The translations under genes and the position numbers were made by a program. The notes beneath the pieces were generated by a model, which was not told where the DNA came from, ran no database searches, and worked only from the letters and a program-made list of their open reading frames with translations. From a virus: a stretch of DNA of 64,000 nucleotides. Below are positions 1,519-21,106 of this stretch, piece after piece. The stretch spans positions 1 through 64,000 of the IMG/VR virus record IMGVR_UViG_3300029904_000005. One strand, written 5' to 3'. The stretch's first letter is position 1. Each line of letters starts with the position of its first letter.

Positions 1519-1602
1519 GCAGAGGTGGCAGAATGGATAATGCACCAGTCTTCTAAACTGGCTTTCTAAAAGAAAATGAGGGTTCGAATCCCTCCCTCTG
1601 TA
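1519..1602 (+). tRNA. tRNA, type II (long variable arm). Anticodon loop CUUCUAA gives anticodon UCU by hand folding; isotype uncertain.
   Basis: Acceptor gcagagg/cctctgt. 3-bp D stem with a 10-nt D loop. Anticodon stem ccagt/actgg. Variable arm tttct-aaa-agaaa with a 5-bp stem. T arm gaggg-ttcgaat-ccctc. No CCA encoded. Confidence 0.7.
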
Positions 1603-2204: not shown

Positions 2205-3011
2205 ATGAGTTGTACAAATAATAAAAAGTCATTAATTATGGAATGGAAGATAGGAGAAATATTTGAGTTTGAAGGTGAGTGGTATCAGTGCATACCAGAT
2301 ACCACTGATGATAATTGCAATAATTGCTTTTTTCAAAAGAGATGTAGCAACATCACAGGTGATTGTAGCTCAACTGCAAGAAGCGACGGTAAAAGCGTAG
2401 CTTTCAAGAAACTTGAAAAGATAGGAGAACCTTATAAATTAGGCAAAGTGCTAATTCAACAATATCAGGGACTTGCTCCTGTAATATTACCTAAAAATTC
2501 GGAGTGCTCAAACATTTTTAGGGTAATTAGTAGCATAAACGTTATTGAGATAGAAATCAAACAACCCCAAGAAAATATGGAAGAATATAGAATGCATGAT
2601 GCAAAAGAAGATATTCCCGAATTTGACAAAGTTGTTGACGAGTGTCTATTTGGCGAGGATAAACTAAACTTAAAGCCGTTTGACCTTGAAGCAGCTAAAG
2701 CAGGTAAACCCGTCTGCACAAGGGATGGAAGAAATGCAAGAATTATTTGCTTTGATGCTAAATGTGCAGATACACCAATTATAGCTTTAGTATCACGTAA
2801 TGATGGAGAAATTTTGTTGAGGCATTATAAAGATGGTAAACTTAGTGTTGATAAAGATTCAGATGCTGACCTCATGATGCTCTCTGAAAAGAAAGAGGGT
2901 TGGATTGTCGTTAGACGAAGTGATATCTACGAGAATGAAGAGGAAGCCAGAGAGACATTGCTTAACTCTTACGAGGCAATGATGCTTAGGAATATAACAT
3001 GGGAGGAATAA
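2205..3011 (+). CDS. hypothetical protein (268 aa), Cys-rich N-terminus
   Basis: Long ORF; N-terminal CxxxxxxxCxxC cluster. Confidence 0.8.
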   Translation: MSCTNNKKSLIMEWKIGEIFEFEGEWYQCIPDTTDDNCNNCFFQKRCSNITGDCSSTARSDGKSVAFKKLEKIGEPYKLGKVLIQQYQGLAPVILPKNSECSNIFRVISSINVIEIEIKQPQENMEEYRMHDAKEDIPEFDKVVDECLFGEDKLNLKPFDLEAAKAGKPVCTRDGRNARIICFDAKCADTPIIALVSRNDGEILLRHYKDGKLSVDKDSDADLMMLSEKKEGWIVVRRSDIYENEEEARETLLNSYEAMMLRNITWEE

Positions 3012-4115: not shown

Positions 4116-5525
4116 ATGAGCAAAGTAAATCCGTCATTAAGGAAAACCTCAAAATTTGATGAGGAAAGATTGGCTGGTGGCTCTGGTGCATTAGCAGCAA
4201 AACAGAGCAATGTGGCTCTATTAAGGAGAGCAGTACTTGCTAACCTCCTTTGGGAGAATGTGGCATATATGGATGGAATAAGGGTTGCTGAGGAAATTCA
4301 GAGACTTGTACCTCTGTGCCCTGCTGAGGAGGTATACAATATAGCCCTTGAAGCAAGGACAATGCAGAAGCTGAGACATACTCCTTTGTTCCTTGCAGTG
4401 GAGATGTGCAAGTATCCTGAGCATAAGATGTTTGTACAGGACTTGCTGCCTCAGATAATCACAAGGGCAGACATGCTCACTGACTTCTTGGCTATCTATT
4501 GGAAGGATGGTAAAAAGCCTATTGCAAATCAAGCAAAGAAAGGCCTAGCACAGGCATTCCATAATTTCAATGAGTATAAACTTGCCAAATATGACAGAGA
4601 TGCAGCTATCAAACTGAGAGATGTCATGTTCTTATGCAGACCTAAGCCAAAGAATCAGTATGAGCAGGAGTTATTTAAAAAGGTAGCAGACAGGACTCTT
4701 GCTGTGCCTGAGACATGGGAAGTGATGCTGTCTACTGGAAAGGATAAGAAAGAGTCTTGGACTAAACTTATCACTGAAGGCAAGATTGGAGGACTGGCCA
4801 TGCTGAGAAACATAGCCAATATGAGAAAGGCAAATGTGGATAGGAGAGTGATTAATGAGGGTCTTAAGAAGTTAAAGTCCTCAATGCTCCTACCTTTGGA
4901 CTTCTTGAAGGCAAACAAGATGAATCCTGAGTTTAGAGGACAAATAGAGGATGCTATGCTAAGTAGTTATGCTAATCTACCTAAGTTAAAAGGTAAGACT
5001 TTGTTTATTGTAGATGTATCAGGCTCAATGAGGGCCCCAATGTCTACTAAGTCTGGATTCAATAGGCAAGATGCAGCATGTGCTATGGCTATGTTAGCTG
5101 CCAATCAGTGTGAGGACTATGAAATAGTCTGCACTGCTGGCAATGACTATGATAGGATTGGAGCACATGAGCATATCATGTATCCTCAAAGGGGATTTGG
5201 CATCTTCTCTCAGATAGAAGATACTAGAAACAGAATTGGATATGGAGGGATATTCACAAGACAGTGCCTTGAATGGTGTGAGAAGAAATTTAAAGGGCAG
5301 AACTTTGATAGAATCATTGTATTCTCAGACTCACAGGATTGTGATTATGACACAATGAAGACTCCTAAGCCTTTTGGTACCTACAACTACATTTGTGATG
5401 TGTCTGCACATACAAAGGGTGTCAACTACAATGGTGTATGGTCTGCTGAAATAAGTGGTTTCTCAGAGCATTTTATCACATTCATTGCAGCAATGGAGGG
5501 TATTCAGAACACCTTTGAGGAATAA
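4116..5525 (+). CDS. rsr: Ro60/Rsr-like protein: TROVE-like helical region plus a C-terminal vWA domain with a MIDAS motif
   Basis: ORF 4092..5525 trimmed to the ATG at 4116. vWA MIDAS motif FIVDVSGSM. N-terminal segments RHTPLFLAV and LAMLRNIANMRKA resemble conserved Ro60 TROVE motifs as I recall them (R.PTHLF.F and LLRNLGKMTA). Size about 470 aa. Confidence 0.6.
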   Translation: MSKVNPSLRKTSKFDEERLAGGSGALAAKQSNVALLRRAVLANLLWENVAYMDGIRVAEEIQRLVPLCPAEEVYNIALEARTMQKLRHTPLFLAVEMCKYPEHKMFVQDLLPQIITRADMLTDFLAIYWKDGKKPIANQAKKGLAQAFHNFNEYKLAKYDRDAAIKLRDVMFLCRPKPKNQYEQELFKKVADRTLAVPETWEVMLSTGKDKKESWTKLITEGKIGGLAMLRNIANMRKANVDRRVINEGLKKLKSSMLLPLDFLKANKMNPEFRGQIEDAMLSSYANLPKLKGKTLFIVDVSGSMRAPMSTKSGFNRQDAACAMAMLAANQCEDYEIVCTAGNDYDRIGAHEHIMYPQRGFGIFSQIEDTRNRIGYGGIFTRQCLEWCEKKFKGQNFDRIIVFSDSQDCDYDTMKTPKPFGTYNYICDVSAHTKGVNYNGVWSAEISGFSEHFITFIAAMEGIQNTFEE

Positions 5526-16404: not shown

Positions 16405-16443
16405 AAGGTGGGTGGATAGAAATGTCCCCCACCTATTTTTTTT
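16405..16443 (+). terminator. rho-independent terminator
   Basis: aggtggg-loop-cccacct stem, followed by a T9 run. Confidence 0.6.
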
Positions 16444-16450
16444 ACTCTAT

Positions 16451-17743
16451 ATGAATGAATTAATAGAAAGTAAGATAGAGGAACTGTATTCCTTGATTAT
16501 GGACAGGCCTAATCAGGTGCTGGCCATATTCAATGATTTCTTTGGTGAGGATAAGGTGGATATGCAGGGGTTCATAGGGGTTGATGAACTCAAGTCATGG
16601 TTTGATGTCACTCCTATCTCTGACTATGCCCCACGAGTTTTACTTGGTATGAGCAGGGAGGATTATAACAATTATGGAAGAAAGCCCTTAACTGACCTGA
16701 AAGATGAGGTACTTGATTCAGTCCTTAATCAACTTTGCAGTGGACGGATGATAGACAGTATAGGACAGATGAATTTCAGCTCAGGATTCATACTTGTACA
16801 TTTCCCCCATGTGAGGATTACCAATGAATATAATAGATTTGTGGATATTAACCACCTGTATGCAAAGGTCAAAGTGCTGTATAATGGCTCAATGAATGGT
16901 TATTTTTCTCTTAATAGAGCTGAATATACCTATCTTCATATCCGTAATAATTATATGCATTCTCATGTAAGCCAAATTCCTCTACGTAATTTTACAGAGT
17001 TTCAGAGTCCATGTACAGGCTCTGGTCCTATCAATAATACTATGGCCCGTCTCAACATTGATGGAGGATTTGACCCTGATATATGGAAACTGTTCTGTCT
17101 TGAGTTGAGTAAATATGTTGAGGTAGAATCCATTGAAGGAGTTCCTTATCACAGATTGGAAAGTCTTGGCATCTCAGGAATGAATGCTGGAGAAACTGAA
17201 TTTAGACTGGTTAATGAACTTAACTATTATGGAGATGGTATGGATGCGATGATTAAGGACTTTACTTCTCATTTCATCAGACAGGGTAAATTAAGATTCA
17301 ACTATGTGGATGGAAGTTATTCTATTGGTATGTCCTTTACTGAGTACATGCTTGTAATCAGTAATGAGTTCATTGACTGGTATAATAAAAGATTCAATAA
17401 CAAAGAGTCAAAATATATCTTTACCACACTCAAGAGCTGTGGCTTATTGAAAGAATGCATTGTAGCAAACAATAGAATCTATTATGGGGATTCTATTGAT
17501 AGGATAAATTCATATACAGCCTATAATGGTAAGAAAATGTGTACTTTTAAAGGTGAGGATGTACTTATCCACATTACAGACATCAATGAAGTGAAGGAAA
17601 GTAATAAATCTGTTGTACTCAATGTTAATATAGCATTGTATATATTGTCGAAAATTCTCCGTGTAATTAATTACAGATATGGAAAAGCAGAACAAAGAGA
17701 CCAAGAAGGTAATAGAATTAGTGAAGAAGTCAGATACATTTAA
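16451..17743 (+). CDS. hypothetical protein (about 430 aa)
   Basis: ORF 16412..17743 trimmed to the ATG at 16451, because the annotated start lies inside the terminator hairpin. Confidence 0.7.
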   Translation: MNELIESKIEELYSLIMDRPNQVLAIFNDFFGEDKVDMQGFIGVDELKSWFDVTPISDYAPRVLLGMSREDYNNYGRKPLTDLKDEVLDSVLNQLCSGRMIDSIGQMNFSSGFILVHFPHVRITNEYNRFVDINHLYAKVKVLYNGSMNGYFSLNRAEYTYLHIRNNYMHSHVSQIPLRNFTEFQSPCTGSGPINNTMARLNIDGGFDPDIWKLFCLELSKYVEVESIEGVPYHRLESLGISGMNAGETEFRLVNELNYYGDGMDAMIKDFTSHFIRQGKLRFNYVDGSYSIGMSFTEYMLVISNEFIDWYNKRFNNKESKYIFTTLKSCGLLKECIVANNRIYYGDSIDRINSYTAYNGKKMCTFKGEDVLIHITDINEVKESNKSVVLNVNIALYILSKILRVINYRYGKAEQRDQEGNRISEEVRYI

Positions 17744-18002
17744 GCTAATTATACCTGAAGAGGTTGAGAAAAAGATAAGATATATATGCCAGCAAATATG
17801 GAAAGATGAATGGTCTGGCACTCTCTTCTATAAACCAGAAGGGAGGTTTGAGGATGGTACTTTGGCTATCAGATGTGTGGATATTTATGTCATGGATATT
17901 GGAACTGCTGCCTATACAGAGTTTGATATGTCTCCTGATGTAATCAGCTATATGACTGATAATCCTGAGTTGCTTGACTGTCAGATGGGACTCATCCATT
18001 AA
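17679..18002 (+). CDS. hypothetical protein (107 aa)
   Basis: ORF track entry. Overlaps the upstream gene by 65 nt in another frame. Confidence 0.55.
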   Translation: MEKQNKETKKVIELVKKSDTFKLIIPEEVEKKIRYICQQIWKDEWSGTLFYKPEGRFEDGTLAIRCVDIYVMDIGTAAYTEFDMSPDVISYMTDNPELLDCQMGLIH

Positions 18003-18163
18003 GTGTGAGTGGATGTAAAACTGGGTGAATTGCTGGAAACTGGTAGATAAACCACAATCAGCAGCCAAGCATTAGGGTTAAAACCCTTTTGAAGGTTCAA
18101 CGACTAACACTTGAAACTGCTATTGCAGAATATAATAGTGACACGAGTGCCCAGCCCTATAGA

Positions 18164-18898
18164 TTATTTTATAGGTGATGATATAGTCTGAACTTGTTTA
18201 TATTTATCATAAGAGGAATGATTTATTCTTTGTAAGAATTTATCATGTTTCCTTTTATAATAAAAGGTTAAATTATTGTAACAATTAAAGAATTGCATAA
18301 CATCTTTTTTAGATGCAAATGCTAATCTTGGTATGGAATCATATTGTCTTATATGAGATTTATCTATAGATAGGTGGTCACATATTCCTTCAAGGAATTT
18401 CTGTGTACCTCTTATACTTATGTATAAAGAATAATCTTTACACAAGTATCCCCTATCATTAGTTCTTTCTCTATCTAAGACAGTTACACTTCCATCTCCA
18501 TCAAAGTATCCTATTATAAAAGCATTTCTATATTCCATAGGTATATTACATAATATATTATCCATAGATAAGCTTTTATTCTCAGTGATACCATATCTTC
18601 TTAAAGCATTTATTATAGGTCTTTTAGAAATTGTATATCTGATATGATGGATTTCCTTAGTTTTATCAAAGGAACTCTTTCTTCTAATTTCAAGCAATTT
18701 TCTATTAATATCTTGTAACTGATTCTTTATAAAATATAAAACAGCTCTGTCCTCATATTTAACCGTAATGGTTAAAGAAGTGGAAGAGGTTGATGTACCT
18801 TTCACTAAAGCACCATCTGCGGCTATAAACCCTAAGATATAGGCTTTTGAATAAGAATCAATTACATCAAAATAATGTACATTTACTGGGTATTTCAT
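18164..18898 (-). mobile_element. free-standing LAGLIDADG homing endonuclease (two LAGLIDADG motifs)
   Basis: Motifs ILGFIAADGAL and IIGYFDGDGSV. Only minus-strand gene in a + strand block. About 150 nt of non-coding DNA on both sides. Confidence 0.85.
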
Positions 18899-18908
18899 AT
18901 ATCTATTT

Positions 18909-18962
18909 ATTTAATTATGTACAAAGATAAGACTTTTAATTTAATTATGCAACAAGATAAGT
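18909..18962 (-). promoter_or_regulatory. tandem imperfect 24-bp direct repeats with a -7 box (TAtcTTTG on the minus strand) upstream of the homing endonuclease gene
   Basis: tttaattatgtacaaagataagac and tttaattatgcaacaagataagtc. The reverse complement of 18922-18929 is tatctttg, 23 nt before the ATG. Confidence 0.4.
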
Positions 18963-19050
18963 CCCTTTGTTATAATATTTAACTATTTTTATTAAAAACA
19001 AGAATGTTAGGATAAAGAGCCTAACAGATAACAATTAGTCACATAATAAC

Positions 19051-19959
19051 ATGAGTACCTTCTTCAGTGGTACAGATACTGCTACTCTGAAGGAAGAAGG
19101 CATAGACAGGAATCATTTTGTATCTCTGATTGTCAATAATGAGGGTACATATACAGCTGCCATTACAAGAAAGGTAAAAGCTGTAAAGACTATCACAGAA
19201 GATTTCTCCTATCCTACCTTTGAGGATGAGGAAATAACAGATACCAAGACCTATACAGTGGAAAGTGAGGAACTTGAGTGGTTTTATCTGAAGATTGAGT
19301 TTGAGAGCAGTTCCTTTCGTGAGGAACTTAAAGCAAGACTTGAGGAAATTAAGAATGTCAAAGCAGAGAAAGCCAGACAAAAGGCACTTAAGCAGCCTGT
19401 ATATGCTGGTGGGTATGGTAATTGGCAAAGTAGTAAGCCTCAGCAGGGTACTCTGTTCCCTGAAATTGGTAAGAAAGTAACACAATCATATATGGGACAA
19501 GCAGGTCCTGCCAATGAGGTTGTTAGAGAGGATAGTGACAGTTCCCTTTTTGATTATGACTATATTGATAATAAGATTTCAAATGATGTGCCTTATAATC
19601 ATGTAGAGTTCAATAAGGAAACTGTGAAATCACTTGTGCTTCAACTTGTTACAGGAAGTATTATTATACCTAATGCAAGTAAGATTGATGCTAGGAAATG
19701 GGCACAGGGTATGGTTCCTCTCTATGAAAGAAGATTTGGTAAAGGTAAGAAAGGAATGAAGTTGTTTGAGTCATGGGCTGAAGGTTATATTGAGTTCCTG
19801 TGTTGGTTCGCTGAGGATAGTGACCTTATAGAAATGGGACTGTGTGATGATGAGATTGCTGCAATATGTGCTTACAGTATAATCAAGGAACTTACCAAGT
19901 TGCCTGAAAATGTATATATTAAGAAGTATATTGATATTCTTAGAGGATATTTAATTTAA
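19051..19959 (+). CDS. hypothetical protein (302 aa)
   Basis: ORF track entry. The antisense ORF 19039..19485 was rejected. Confidence 0.75.
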   Translation: MSTFFSGTDTATLKEEGIDRNHFVSLIVNNEGTYTAAITRKVKAVKTITEDFSYPTFEDEEITDTKTYTVESEELEWFYLKIEFESSSFREELKARLEEIKNVKAEKARQKALKQPVYAGGYGNWQSSKPQQGTLFPEIGKKVTQSYMGQAGPANEVVREDSDSSLFDYDYIDNKISNDVPYNHVEFNKETVKSLVLQLVTGSIIIPNASKIDARKWAQGMVPLYERRFGKGKKGMKLFESWAEGYIEFLCWFAEDSDLIEMGLCDDEIAAICAYSIIKELTKLPENVYIKKYIDILRGYLI

Positions 19960-19969
19960 AGTAAATGAA

Positions 19970-21106
19970 ATGGAAGAATTAATGGATACAATATCTGATA
20001 GTGTAGAGCCTGCTGAGCCTATAACAGAGGAAACTACTCAAAATGTAATTGGGCCTGAAGCAATTGGTGTATCTTATGTAGATTCTACACAACTTGATAC
20101 AATACTTTTTGGTGTACATCATGGTCTCATTCCCTCTATTGAGCCTTATAGTGAGGCACCTTATACATATCAGCTGTCTTTTGGTAATGGTCATATTCTT
20201 TTCATCAATGACCATCAGTTCAGTATAATAGTTGAGGCAATAAGAAGGCATGAGAATGCAGCAACAGAACATATTGAACCTCTTCCTAACAGTGAACCTG
20301 ACAGTAGTCCTCTTTCAAAGGAAGAAGAGGAACTGTTGGCACAGGTAGTGGAGGAGGCACACAGTGAGATTCCTGTAAATTCAGATTCACTGCTTGTTGA
20401 TGAGTCTACTTCAAGATTCAGCTCTGCTATTTGGTATGAAGCAATTCAGAAGAAGACTATTCTACTTGCAGGTGTTGGTGGTATTGGTTCTTATGTAGGT
20501 TTTCTATTGGCAAGAATGAAGCCTGCTGCACTCTTTATTTATGACCCTGATATAGTTGAAACTGCTAATATGTCAGGCCAGTTATATAGTATGCATGATA
20601 TAGGAAATCACAAAGTAAGTGCTCTCTCAGGGATGATTAGTAGATATTGTGATTATGGCAGTACATTTGCAGTTCCTGAAAGATTTGATGAGACTAGTGA
20701 AGCTGCTGACATCATGATTTGTGGCTTTGACAATATGGCTGCAAGAAGGCTCTTCTTTAGTAAATGGCTAAATCATGTACAGAATAAACCTGCATCAGAA
20801 AGAGCTAATTGTCTGTATATAGATGGAAGACTGGCAGCAGAAGAGTTCCAAGTACTCTGTATTAAAGGAGATGATGAGTTCAATATCAACAGATATGGAA
20901 GGGAGTTCCTATTTTCTGATATAGAGGCAGATGCAACAGTATGTTCATATAAGCAGACTACATTCATGGCTAACATGATTGCATCTGTTATGGTCAATTT
21001 GTTTGTGAACTTTGTAGCAAATCAGAATAATCCTCTTATTGACAGAGACCTGCCATTCTATACTACATACAATGCAGAAACTATGTATTATAAAACTGAA
21101 GCATAA
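19970..21106 (+). CDS. ThiF/MoeB/E1-like adenylyltransferase with an N-terminal extension of about 150 aa
   Basis: Rossmann nucleotide-binding motif LLAGVGGIGSYVGFLL followed by E1-like core conservation. Confidence 0.7.
   Translation: MEELMDTISDSVEPAEPITEETTQNVIGPEAIGVSYVDSTQLDTILFGVHHGLIPSIEPYSEAPYTYQLSFGNGHILFINDHQFSIIVEAIRRHENAATEHIEPLPNSEPDSSPLSKEEEELLAQVVEEAHSEIPVNSDSLLVDESTSRFSSAIWYEAIQKKTILLAGVGGIGSYVGFLLARMKPAALFIYDPDIVETANMSGQLYSMHDIGNHKVSALSGMISRYCDYGSTFAVPERFDETSEAADIMICGFDNMAARRLFFSKWLNHVQNKPASERANCLYIDGRLAAEEFQVLCIKGDDEFNINRYGREFLFSDIEADATVCSYKQTTFMANMIASVMVNLFVNFVANQNNPLIDRDLPFYTTYNAETMYYKTEA

Follow-up and report, generated by a model that had tools for sequence, protein, structure and literature searches.

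Group I introns of coliphage T4 lie in conserved enzyme genes, those of td (I-TevI), nrdB (I-TevIII) and nrdD (I-TevII), as does the phage intron described here, and like it they carry the homing endonuclease gene (HEG) in a peripheral loop, with its own promoter inside the intron. T4 introns also have in-frame stop codons near the 5′ splice site. In the case of I-TevI, a homing-site-like operator (15/20) overlaps the promoter of the enzyme's own gene (PMC2988022). HEGs in antisense orientation, each with its own promoter on the opposite strand, have been described in the myxomycete rDNA introns Dir.S956-2 (I-DirII) and Dsq.L2066 (I-DsqI), the latter with the HEG in a P9-region loop (P9.2) (PMC9548176, PMC3073962). 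In crAss-like phages of the Delta and Zeta groups, Yutin et al. 2021 reported LAGLIDADG ORFs inside group I introns of the genes for MCP, PolB, primase, ATPase and RNAP; these were detected through their endonuclease domains, and JAB, MPN and ThiF are absent from the main text of that paper (PMC7886860).

The locus considered here lies in a window of 64,000 nucleotides, by which is meant the whole stretch of viral DNA that was analysed (positions 1 to 64,000 of IMG/VR record IMGVR_UViG_3300029904_000005). The relatives of the window are crAss001-like (Steigviridae). Positions 18000..19038 are very probably a mobile, self-splicing group I intron in a crAss-like phage JAB/MPN gene, with an antisense HEG cassette in the P9 loop. 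The grounds for this reading, all drawn from sequence, are a ribozyme signature, the P1 and P10 pairings, a terminal G, covariation, restoration of the reading frame and absence from relatives.

Host gene and intron structure

The host gene and the intron comprise the following features, all on the plus strand.

17679..17999: exon 1, JAB/MPN (JAMM) metalloprotease (crAss001 gp77 homologue); relatives align through 17998
18000..19038: group I intron, 1039 nt (Rfam RF00028, exact indel, restored reading frame)
17993-17999/18009-18015: P1, CAUCCAU/GUGGAUG, with the splice-site wobble U17999.G18009
18004-18008/19039-19043: P10, UGUGA/UCACA, read from the sequence, the second strand being the first exon 2 bases
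18021..18199: ribozyme core (Rfam alignment and hand-derived structure mapped on the alignment)
18021-26/18149-54: P3, ribozyme core
18031-36/18058-63: P4, ribozyme core
within 18021..18199: P5, P6/P6a, P7.1/P7.2 and J8/7, ribozyme core
18102-06/18184-88: P7, ribozyme core
18156-62/18169-75: P8, ribozyme core
18193-18199: P9 5′ strand, ribozyme core
18996..19038: 3′ ribozyme part, consisting of the P9 3′ strand, P9.1 and the tail AGAUAACAAUUAG, whose last base is G19038
18996-19002: P9 3′ strand
19006-11/19020-25: P9.1 hairpin (helix 14; 100% paired, 6/6 pairs compensatory)
19039..19959: exon 2 of the JAB/MPN gene, starting SHNNMSTFFSGTD; relatives resume at 19039

When 17679..17999 is joined to 19039..19959 the frame is kept and a 413-amino acid JAB/MPN protein results, with the motif HSHx7SxxD (HxHx7Sx2D) intact. 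Exon 1 ends in the residues GLIH, its final base, U17999, being the 5′ splice site, and the 17999/19039 junction restores HSHNNMSTFFSGTD. The intron site is located between the codons for GLIH and SH, within the JAMM active-site motif. The Pfam Prok-JAB match spans the junction of the spliced protein, and each half alone gives no match. Over 98-100% of its length the spliced protein aligns in one piece to 44 crAss-like phage records, one of which is crAss001 gp77, a 'metalloprotease domain containing protein' and neighbour of ThiF; the JAB gene is uninterrupted in these 44 records and in 77 of 78 IMG/VR relatives. A near-identity DNA search of 17000-20500 against a phage collection returned no match, and the relatives were found at the protein level. 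Judged by this alignment and the continuous reading frame, the ORFs at 17679..18002 and 19051..19959 are exons of a single gene and the two-gene call is wrong. The initial annotation, which placed the insertion between two replication-module genes, has to be corrected on this point, as does the downstream coding start at ATG 19051, since coding resumes at 19039.

The intron opens with an in-frame TAA (18000-18002) and closes with a terminal G (G19038). The Rfam model RF00028 (Intron_gpI) matched 17950..18209 on the plus strand with 66.4 bits (gathering score 50, E = 3.5e-16), which is the sole Rfam intron match in the window; homologous introns score 70.9-71.5 bits and that of Flavobacterium phage Fpv1 43.4, below the gathering score of 50. 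Because the Rfam alignment put P1 and P2 on exon sequence, P1 and P10 were re-derived by hand. In L091, L095 and Fpv1, changes in the exon are accompanied by matching changes in the guide sequence. The J8/7-P7 pattern GANGATATAGTCTGAAC is generic, matching >120 unrelated phage introns, and served only as a background set. The presence of both P7.1 and P7.2 indicates that the intron is probably of the IA type.

Covariation was assessed in nine introns. Pairing was found in 92.8% of the cells, compared with 33-44% in slid controls, and 40 of the 71 proposed base pairs showed compensatory changes; the observed values were reached by none of 500 shuffles. Covariation thus supports the conserved core helices P3-P9, with the P3/P7 pseudoknot among them. 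The P9 stem (CTTGTTT/AAACAAG) was 100% paired, with compensatory changes in 6 of its 7 pairs, while helix 1 (P1) was paired in 83.6% and helix 2 (P10) in 93.3% of cells. P7 is invariant and hence uninformative in this test. MAFFT misaligned the 5′ ends of the Fpv1 intron and of L082 intron 2, so that P1 cells were scored as unpaired and the test is conservative.

The antisense endonuclease gene and its upstream region

The insert in the P9 loop and the elements associated with it are the following.

18164..18898, minus strand: LAGLIDADG HEG, 244 aa, antisense to the intron
18200..18995, no strand assigned: P9 terminal-loop insert, 796 nt, holding the HEG promoter region and the HEG itself apart from its last 36 nt
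18922..18929, minus strand: candidate Bacteroidetes-type -7 box TATCTTTG (TAnnTTTG), 31 nt upstream of the HEG ATG
18903-18932 and 18933-18962, no strand assigned: tandem repeat of two 30-nt units, 80% identity, in the HEG upstream region
18944..18965, minus strand: pseudo-target GGGACTTATCTTGTTGCATAAT, candidate operator, 16/22 match to the intron-less target

A two-motif LAGLIDADG gene had been proposed at 18164..18898 on the minus strand, and it was recovered by Pfam, with matches to LAGLIDADG_3 (PF14528, 5.1e-8) and LAGLIDADG_1 (PF00961, 1.4e-6), both above the cut-offs. The motifs are LGFIAADG (D28) and IGYFDGDG (D135), their acidic residues are invariant in 21 homologues, and dN/dS is 0.07-0.22. 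The AlphaFold model (pLDDT 81.7, pTM 0.81) shows an alpha-beta-beta-alpha-beta-beta-alpha unit twice, with residues 233-244 disordered. A PDB sequence search with the HEG product gave no match; with Foldseek, the top 50 matches in the PDB were all LAGLIDADG enzymes, at a probability of 1.0. Its conservation and modelled fold mark the product as a genuine, selected, monomeric two-domain LAGLIDADG protein, for which endonuclease activity is predicted.

The GC content is 27.5%, compared with 36.4% for the window. As was claimed at the outset, this is the only credible reverse gene in the plus-strand block (to 48535); four other minus-strand ORFs of at least 150 aa overlap plus-strand ORFs and are taken to be shadow ORFs. 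The flanks of about 150 nt that had been described as non-coding do lack protein-coding ORFs, but they are not spacers, the left one being the ribozyme core and the right one containing the HEG promoter region, the P9 3′ strand, P9.1 and the 3′ splice site. The final 36 nt of the HEG (18164-18199) overlap the P9 5′ strand, J7/9, the P7 3′ strand, J8/7 and part of P8, the ribozyme core supplying the last 11 codons and the stop codon. The tail QVQTISSP is conserved; the C-terminal tail encoded by the ribozyme core is dispensable, and a naturally truncated form of 233 aa exists.

HEG copies were located via a large protein database and the ribozyme DNA pattern; searching IMG/VR with a peptide pattern of the HEG gave none. 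Every carrier examined (L082-L095, L219-L221 and Fpv1) has the HEG in this antisense orientation and in the JAB gene. In a sample of 123 the antisense HEG orientation was encountered in one doubtful case.

Promoters of the Bacteroidetes housekeeping sigma factor have the consensus -33 TTTG / -7 TAnnTTTG. The initial annotation had pointed to a minus-strand -7 box and to a host-type promoter belonging to the HEG itself. The box, TATCTTTG at 18929..18922, is present, and the HEG apparently does have such a promoter, since 9 of 10 homologous loci, Fpv1 among them, have a TAnnTTTG box of Bacteroidetes type at a distance of 19-35 nt before the ATG. The motif is without enrichment in the window (70 matches, 64.9 expected), so that the value of the box lies only in this positional conservation, and the putative -33 element is approximate, simply TTG-like. 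A scan for sigma-70 promoters and terminators stayed at chance level; no terminator was predicted after the HEG, and the single terminator-like hairpin is the antisense of P9.1.

Two tandem 24-bp repeats had been noted upstream of the HEG. There are indeed two tandem units, though of 30 nt each (18903-18932 and 18933-18962; 80%), and they are target-like. Compared with the 22-bp intron-less target, GGGACTCATCCAT|TCACATAAT, the pseudo-target at 18944-18965 is identical in the outer 6+6 nt and diverged in the centre. It lies on the same strand as the HEG, 46-67 nt ahead of the start codon, where it overlaps the putative promoter, and on its sequence it is a candidate autorepression operator.

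It is an even question whether the repeats and the target-like sequence have any regulatory role, or reflect chance in AT-rich DNA or a footprint of recombination of the HEG cassette into P9. Significant similarity is confined to the short-form HEGs, a group of mutually related members: p was about 0.005-0.013 for the window, 0.10 for L082 and 0.23 for L094, three window lengths having been tried, and at the long-form HEG loci no target-like site was seen (p 0.67-0.87). L083 has a target-like site matching at 18/22, a value attained in none of 200 shuffles. Against a lack of function, only three sites with at least 16/22 exist on both strands of the 64-kb window (~128,000 positions), and one of them falls upstream of the HEG on the HEG strand; perfect outer 6+6 nt with a diverged centre are what binding without cleavage would need; and the overlap with the putative promoter is like that of the I-TevI operator (15/20; PMC2988022).

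Movement between phages and proposed mechanism

Relative to the closest intron-less relatives (83-86% aa) the intron is an exact 1039-bp indel, window positions 17998 and 19039 corresponding to positions 4320 and 4322 of L004. The earlier view that the element is mobile and absent from close relatives is borne out, 77 of 78 IMG/VR relatives being empty at the site; alignment with related phages does reveal an indel, with the boundaries 18000..19038 in place of 18003-19050. Between L082 and the window the JAB protein is 45-61% identical, the HEG 95% and the ribozyme 98%; for L094 the corresponding values are 55-66%, 90% and 95%. Since the HEG and the ribozyme outmatch the host-gene similarity while the nearest relatives are without the intron, recent lateral movement is required, and these comparisons of sequence show that the unit of intron and HEG moved between otherwise very divergent phages.

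L082 also contains a second, ORF-less sister intron 18 nt downstream, with a short P9 hairpin where the HEG insert sits. All copies of the intron found at this site carry the ORF and none lacks the HEG, so that only part of a gain-and-loss cycle is seen. With respect to co-conversion tracts, raised identity of the exon flanks was inseparable from active-site conservation.

In the proposed mechanism the plus strand would be transcribed and ribosomes would halt on reaching the in-frame TAA at the start of the intron. Folding and self-excision of the ribozyme would then give the predicted ligated exon junction ...GGGACTCATCCAT|TCACATAATAAC... (...ATCCAT|TCACAT...), from which the 413-aa protease could be made. 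The P9 loop would hold an expression unit of its own, pointing the other way and made up of the HEG and its own host-type promoter (TAnnTTTG). The HEG enzyme would, from what is known of its family, cut intron-less alleles in co-infecting phages at a site of ~22 bp encoding GLIH|SHNNM; taken from the exon junction alone, the proposed cleavage target is GGGACTCATCCATTCACATAAT. Such a target would be conserved because the catalytic site is encoded there. Intron-less relatives have synonymous variants of it, for example ...ATTCAC|TCCCAC... in L006-L008. Repair off an intron-bearing genome would copy the whole unit into the cut allele (homing).

A bolder extension, which we consider unlikely, would make this the first phage or prokaryotic group I intron with a HEG as an independent antisense transcription unit that is doubly wired to the intron, through a target-like operator and through complementarity between mRNA and ribozyme, with the ORF-less intron of L082 as the pre-invasion state. 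The promoter operator would then confer autorepression as in I-TevI, independently evolved in a LAGLIDADG enzyme. The 3′ end of the HEG mRNA would be complementary to P7, J8/7 and P8 of the ribozyme, so that HEG expression and splicing of the JAB mRNA might be antagonistic, via RNA-RNA pairing or convergent transcription. The two introns of L082 could then capture the stage at which a HEG cassette with its own promoter enters an intron already in place.

A real intron whose ORF is a decaying relic or acts solely as a splicing maturase, the whole element being vertically inherited, is a much poorer explanation and is judged very improbable. The best structural match is indeed the bI3 maturase, followed by the bifunctional I-AniI, and retention of the ORF in every copy found would fit a host-beneficial role; yet the catalytic Asp of both motifs is invariant, dN/dS is 0.07-0.22, and HEG and ribozyme are far closer between phages than the host gene is, with the nearest relatives intron-less. 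The protein might serve as a maturase alongside homing. The free-standing HEG of the initial annotation, with two distinct replication-module genes on either side of an intergenic spacer that holds it, is scarcely credible: the ORF is on the opposite strand, with an apparent promoter of its own and lower GC, and both the Fpv1 annotators and metagenome gene callers took the flanks as separate genes, but the flanks are a group I ribozyme (RF00028, 66.4 bits) with the HEG in its P9 loop, and the two 'genes' are halves of a JAB gene that is continuous in relatives and whose JAMM motif exists only in the joined product.

If the locus is a mobile intron, as we favour, a conserved JAB/MPN gene has been miscalled in this window, in the Fpv1 RefSeq record and in many metagenomic crAss-like contigs, where it appears as an 'endonuclease' and a pair of small ORFs with no relation to each other, and the protease, partnered with an E1/ThiF-like enzyme, would be whole only after splicing. 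Antisense orientation and a promoter of its own would make ribozyme and endonuclease separable partners, and the antisense cassette supports the model in which a promoter-bearing HEG invades an existing intron. It also raises the question of how a phage system that has no compartments tolerates an mRNA able to pair with the core of its own ribozyme. Placement of the proposed target over the codons of an invariant catalytic motif would be the textbook homing-site strategy, and the enzyme offers a new compact LAGLIDADG scaffold (233-244 aa) whose 22-bp target can be predicted. In crAss-like phages of the human gut the unit is abundant, and where phages co-infect it could skew the inheritance of markers.

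Comparison with known systems

The HEGs of the T4 introns are of the GIY-YIG or HNH type and lie on the same strand as the intron, whereas the present one is LAGLIDADG and antisense; unlike them, its 3′ end overlaps the catalytic core and its promoter is of Bacteroidetes type. The two-domain fold is shared with the bI3 maturase (2ab5), I-AniI (1p8k), I-OnuI and I-SmaMI (Foldseek probability 1.0, TM about 0.5-0.64), but sequence identity to these LAGLIDADG enzymes is just 11-20%. All four are organellar and sense-encoded.

Among phages, LAGLIDADG proteins 27-30% identical to this one and annotated as intron-encoded are those of the cr6_1 ATPase intron, the cr114_1 endonuclease and the Bacillus phage 0305phi8-36 DNA polymerase intron. 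In cr6_1 the intron terminates in a hairpin-GATAACAAAATTG element resembling the one here. In cr6_1, cr114_1 and 0305phi8-36, however, the HEG has the orientation of its host gene and lies in a different gene than here, the host ATPase of cr6_1 being split at the P-loop, GTG|KT. The cr6_1 gene annotated as 'proteasome non-ATPase regulatory subunit' was considered as the same JAB gene with a sense HEG and rejected, its sequence being that of an ATPase split at the P-loop; an Rfam scan of this gene found no intron at E < 0.1.

The myxomycete introns share the antisense HEG, and Dsq.L2066 also its placement in the P9 region, in the P9 loop itself in the present case. They are eukaryotic, of group IE, in rRNA genes and with His-Cys box enzymes, in contrast to a LAGLIDADG enzyme in a phage protein-coding gene. 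Their HEGs have Pol II promoters, spliceosomal introns and poly(A), and nucleolar compartmentation has been proposed as a safeguard against antisense interference, whereas the phage host here is a bacterium without compartments. When the open-access literature was searched for phage or bacterial group I introns with an antisense HEG, the sole finds were the eukaryotic rDNA cases and the free-standing T4 segD. The element belongs to a known kind, the mobile group I intron, and has an unusual antisense configuration that in this literature was found only for slime-mould rDNA introns.

A group I intron within the JAB/MPN metalloprotease gene

Screening against Rfam revealed a group I intron at 17950..18209 of the plus strand (66.4 bits against a gathering score of 50, E = 3.5e-16), the only such match in the whole 64-kb window. 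The plus-strand ORF upstream of the homing endonuclease gene (HEG) ends in ...MGLIH*, and the frame of the downstream ORF, extended back from its ATG at 19051, reads SHNNMSTFFSGTD. When 17999 is joined to 19039 the frame is kept, and the 413-aa product contains HSHNNMSTFFSGTD, in agreement with the JAMM metalloprotease motif HxHx7Sx2D. Pfam Prok-JAB spans the exon join at E = 3e-4, which falls short of the Pfam cut-off; neither exon half singly matched Pfam. The Rfam match, the frame-keeping join and the domain across the junction therefore define the intron as 18000..19038. P1, P10, the final intron base (G19038) and an in-frame TAA at intron bases 1-3 were all verified in the sequence. By what is known of phage introns, this TAA should keep ribosomes out of the ribozyme.

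18000..19038, plus strand: group I intron, 1039 nt
17993-17999 (CAUCCAU) with 18009-18015 (GUGGAUG), plus strand: P1, with wobble pair U17999.G18009
18004-18008 (UGUGA) with 19039-19043 (UCACA), plus strand: P10
18193-18199 with 18996-19002, plus strand: P9, 100% paired, compensatory changes in 6 of 7 pairs
19006-11 with 19020-25, plus strand: P9.1, 100% paired, compensatory changes in 6 of 6 pairs

The hand-derived structure (P1, P10, P3-P9, P7.1/P7.2, P9.1) was projected onto an alignment, with the P9-loop insert removed, of the window intron, its homologues at eight other loci and a sister intron that lacks an ORF. Standard pairs filled 92.8% of cells, against 33-44% with partners slid 1-3 columns; both-sided changes occurred in 40 of the 71 ribozyme pairs, and none of 500 shuffles attained any observed pairing measure. 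The guide sequence tracks the exon, being AUCCAU:GUGGAU in the window, CUCCAU:GUGGAG and GUGCAU:GUGCAC in loci L091 and L095, and GGUCAU:GUGACC in Flavobacterium phage Fpv1. P7 is invariant, and thus speaks neither for nor against the model. The Rfam alignment places P1 and P2 on exon sequence, a placement considered erroneous. The intron is probably of subgroup IA, given that it has P7.1 and P7.2.

Unbroken alignments of the spliced protein (98-100% coverage) were obtained with 44 crAss-like phage records, among them crAss001 gp77 ('metalloprotease domain containing protein'), whose neighbours, gp78 and the ThiF-like gp76, form the same neighbourhood as in the window. The motif was uninterrupted in 77 of 78 related IMG/VR loci; the exception, L080, is broken by a contig end, and its contig carries the intron (L220). 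In the closest relatives (83-86% at the amino acid level) the alignment runs to window 17998 and resumes from 19039 at adjacent bases, so that the 1039 bp constitute an exact insertion, an indel such as the initial annotation had supposed.

The split JAB/MPN gene is the middle member of a conserved trio (16412-21106), its partners encoding a 443-aa protein and a ThiF/E1-like enzyme (Pfam ThiF 2.4e-15). In relatives the trio lies between primase and uracil-DNA glycosylase, and it resembles a ubiquitin-like conjugation/deconjugation module.

The antisense LAGLIDADG gene and its upstream region

The initial annotation had taken the HEG for a free-standing gene between replication-module genes; it lies, instead, backwards inside the group I intron of one JAB gene. 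Its identification as a LAGLIDADG enzyme was borne out by Pfam matches of the product to LAGLIDADG_3 (5.1e-8) and LAGLIDADG_1 (1.4e-6), both above curated cut-offs. It is also, as claimed, the sole credible minus-strand gene (ORFs of at least 150 aa) in a plus block reaching to 48535; four further minus ORFs of at least 150 aa in this block each overlap plus ORFs and are taken to be shadow ORFs. The GC content of the HEG is 27.5%, against 36.4% for the window, and the intron holds no plus-strand ORF of at least 40 aa.

18164..18898, minus strand: HEG ORF, 244 aa
18200-18995: insert enclosed by P9, 796 nt, holding the greater part of the HEG coding sequence together with the region upstream of it
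18164-18199, minus strand: last 36 nt of the HEG, antisense of the P9 5' strand, J7/9, the P7 3' strand, J8/7 and part of P8
18929..18922, minus strand: candidate -7 box TATCTTTG, a TAnnTTTG match upstream of the HEG
18903-18932 and 18933-18962: tandem repeat units, two 30-nt copies, 80% identical
18965..18944, minus strand: target-like sequence GGGACTTATCTTGTTGCATAAT, the distal repeat copy on the HEG strand

Elsewhere in the window, very large ORFs occupy 36360-63797 (2723 and 1336 aa on the plus strand, then 1857, 677, 925 and 1573 aa on the minus strand), the strand switching near 48.5 kb, and there are three tRNA genes:

1519-1602, plus strand: tRNA gene, Rfam 62.9 bits
5563-5635, plus strand: tRNA gene, Rfam 58.9 bits
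5990-6064, plus strand: tRNA gene, Rfam 34.1 bits

The catalytic aspartates D28 and D135 are invariant among homologues, and dN/dS against six of these was 0.07-0.22. A confident AlphaFold model (pLDDT 81.7, pTM 0.81) contains two alpha-beta-beta-alpha-beta-beta-alpha units. In the PDB, the 50 best Foldseek matches were without exception monomeric LAGLIDADG enzymes or maturases (probability 1.0), including bI3 maturase, I-AniI, I-OnuI and I-SmaMI; searching the PDB by sequence gave no match.

The ORF extends beyond the P9 insert into the ribozyme. Since its 3' end is the antisense of ribozyme parts, the C-terminal QVQTISSP is kept even in the Flavobacterium phage homologue, which is ~45% identical overall. 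In locus L083 (protein P0010) a compensatory P9 change, CTTGT/ACAAG to CTTAC/GTAAG, keeps the helix and creates a premature HEG stop; this 233-aa form, without the ribozyme-encoded tail, was present in 11 contigs. The tail is dispensable, and it alone in the AlphaFold model has pLDDT < 50.

In 9 of 10 loci, Fpv1 included, the HEG ATG is preceded at a distance of 19-35 nt by TAnnTTTG, the sequence of the Bacteroidetes -7 element. The box as such shows no enrichment in the window (70 found, 64.9 expected), and the case for a promoter therefore rests on this conserved position, by which the HEG would have its own candidate Bacteroidetes-type promoter. Sigma-70 promoter and terminator scans were at chance level. 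The sole terminator-like hairpin of the region, 19026..19005 on the minus strand (TGTTAGGCTCTTTATCCTAACA, then a T-rich tail), is P9.1 and the P9 3' strand read in antisense (1 found against 0.9 expected, chance level). Lying directly upstream of the HEG promoter and on the HEG strand, it could insulate the gene from antisense read-through.

The tandem repeats described upstream of the HEG are real, with a unit of 30 nt rather than 24. The target-like sequence in the distal copy is identical at 16 of 22 bases to the 22-bp intron-less target GGGACTCATCCAT/TCACATAAT (slash, junction), the outer 6+6 bases being the same and the centre diverged. Only three positions in the window, both strands considered, match the target this well (shuffle test, empirical p ~0.005-0.013). 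In L083 the corresponding sequence matches its own target at 18/22 (0/200 shuffles); the signal is weaker in L082 (p = 0.10) and L094 (p = 0.23), and none was found in the promoter region of loci encoding longer forms of the enzyme. A parallel exists in the I-TevI operator, which overlaps the promoter and agrees with the homing site at 15/20 bases; the enzyme binds it but cuts it ~100-fold less efficiently (PMC2988022). The balance is about even between such an operator and a recombination footprint or chance.

Mobility and related elements

A large protein database contained 605 relatives of the HEG. Those of one group (83-96% identity) have 244 aa; those of a larger group (~70%) have 290-355 aa, with an N-terminal extension that faintly matches HTH domains. 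Most homologues are such long forms (P0011, P0052, P0108 and others; loci L087-L095), with one or two extensions faintly matching HTH_23, HTH_28 or GerE, and the short form is common to the window and Fpv1. Many relatives lie on ~100 kb contigs, and in all contexts inspected the HEG is antisense between ORFs of ~100 and ~280 aa, with ThiF adjoining.

Relative to the window, L082 has JAB exons 45-61% identical in amino acids, an HEG 95% and a ribozyme 98% identical; for L094 the values are 55-66%, 90% and 95%. The phages nearest by JAB sequence lack the intron. An element more alike than its host gene, and absent from the nearest relatives of that gene, requires lateral transfer. The initial observation was largely correct, its free-standing placement aside, and right in describing the gene as mobile and absent from relatives.

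The proposed endonuclease target is the codons for GLIH/SHNNM, invariant at the protein level in empty alleles, with synonymous differences only and 15-20 of 22 bases identical. The closest intron-less relatives (L006-L008) read ...ATTCAC/TC[CT]CAC... at the site equivalent to 17997-19044; the differences are synonymous, and the last exon-1 position is C where U is needed for the U.G wobble pair of P1. This C may reduce endonuclease recognition, and these could be resistant alleles.

L082 possesses a second group I intron that has no counterpart in the window (2616-2868, minus strand of the locus; 264 nt, ORF-less, Rfam 87.5 bits). Only 18 nt, the mini-exon TCACATAATAATATGGCT, separate it from the first intron upstream. 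Read by eye, it has P1 AUGGCU:GGUCAU and P10 AAUGU:ACAUU; its ribozyme is 68% identical to that of the window intron and agrees with it in P9.1 and the 3' tail. Its P9 is a short closed hairpin, and it has the look of an intron not yet invaded by an HEG.

Fpv1 (L003, NC_031914; 3924..2904, minus strand) carries the same intron family in the same gene, with an antisense HEG 43% identical (tblastn), inserted 6 nt (two codons) upstream of the window site (VGH/IHSH versus GLIH/SH). The guide is re-fitted (P1 GGUCAU:GUGACC, P10 UGUAU:AUACA), and there is an extra P2-like hairpin. In RefSeq its exons are annotated as two unconnected genes for hypothetical proteins, gp56 and gp54.

Comparison with known introns

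Judged from its sequence, the element belongs to a known kind, the mobile group I introns, and its layout is unusual: P9 holds a LAGLIDADG cassette in antisense, which extends into the catalytic core and possibly carries a target-like operator; splicing, HEG transcription and target cleavage are predicted. Group I introns with LAGLIDADG ORFs have been reported in crAss-like phages, mainly of the Delta and Zeta groups (PMC7886860); the terms JAB, MPN and ThiF are absent from the main text of that paper. The more distant HEG relatives of cr6_1, cr114_1 and Bacillus phage 0305phi8-36 are sense-oriented with respect to their host genes, whereas the window HEG is antisense. In cr6_1 (L217, NC_055894; 2008-3967) the P-loop of a gene annotated 'proteasome non-ATPase regulatory subunit' / 'ATPase' is interrupted (GTKGTG/KT) by an insert with a sense-oriented LAGLIDADG gene and a 3' end, GTTAGGATAAAAAGCCTAACGATAACAAAATTG, much like that of the window intron; Rfam gave no match on this insert at E < 0.1.

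Of 123 IMG/VR phage intron cores with the J8/7-P7 motif in common, a single one adjoins an antisense ORF of 150 aa or more, and that ORF lacks a LAGLIDADG motif. The words 'antisense' and 'opposite strand' are absent from a 2014 review of bacterial group I introns, and no description of an antisense-HEG intron in a phage or bacterium was found in the open-access literature. Antisense HEGs are documented in myxomycete nuclear rDNA introns (PMC9548176, PMC3073962), which share this arrangement with the window; their enzymes are of the His-Cys box family and their promoters Pol II, whereas the window enzyme is a LAGLIDADG protein.
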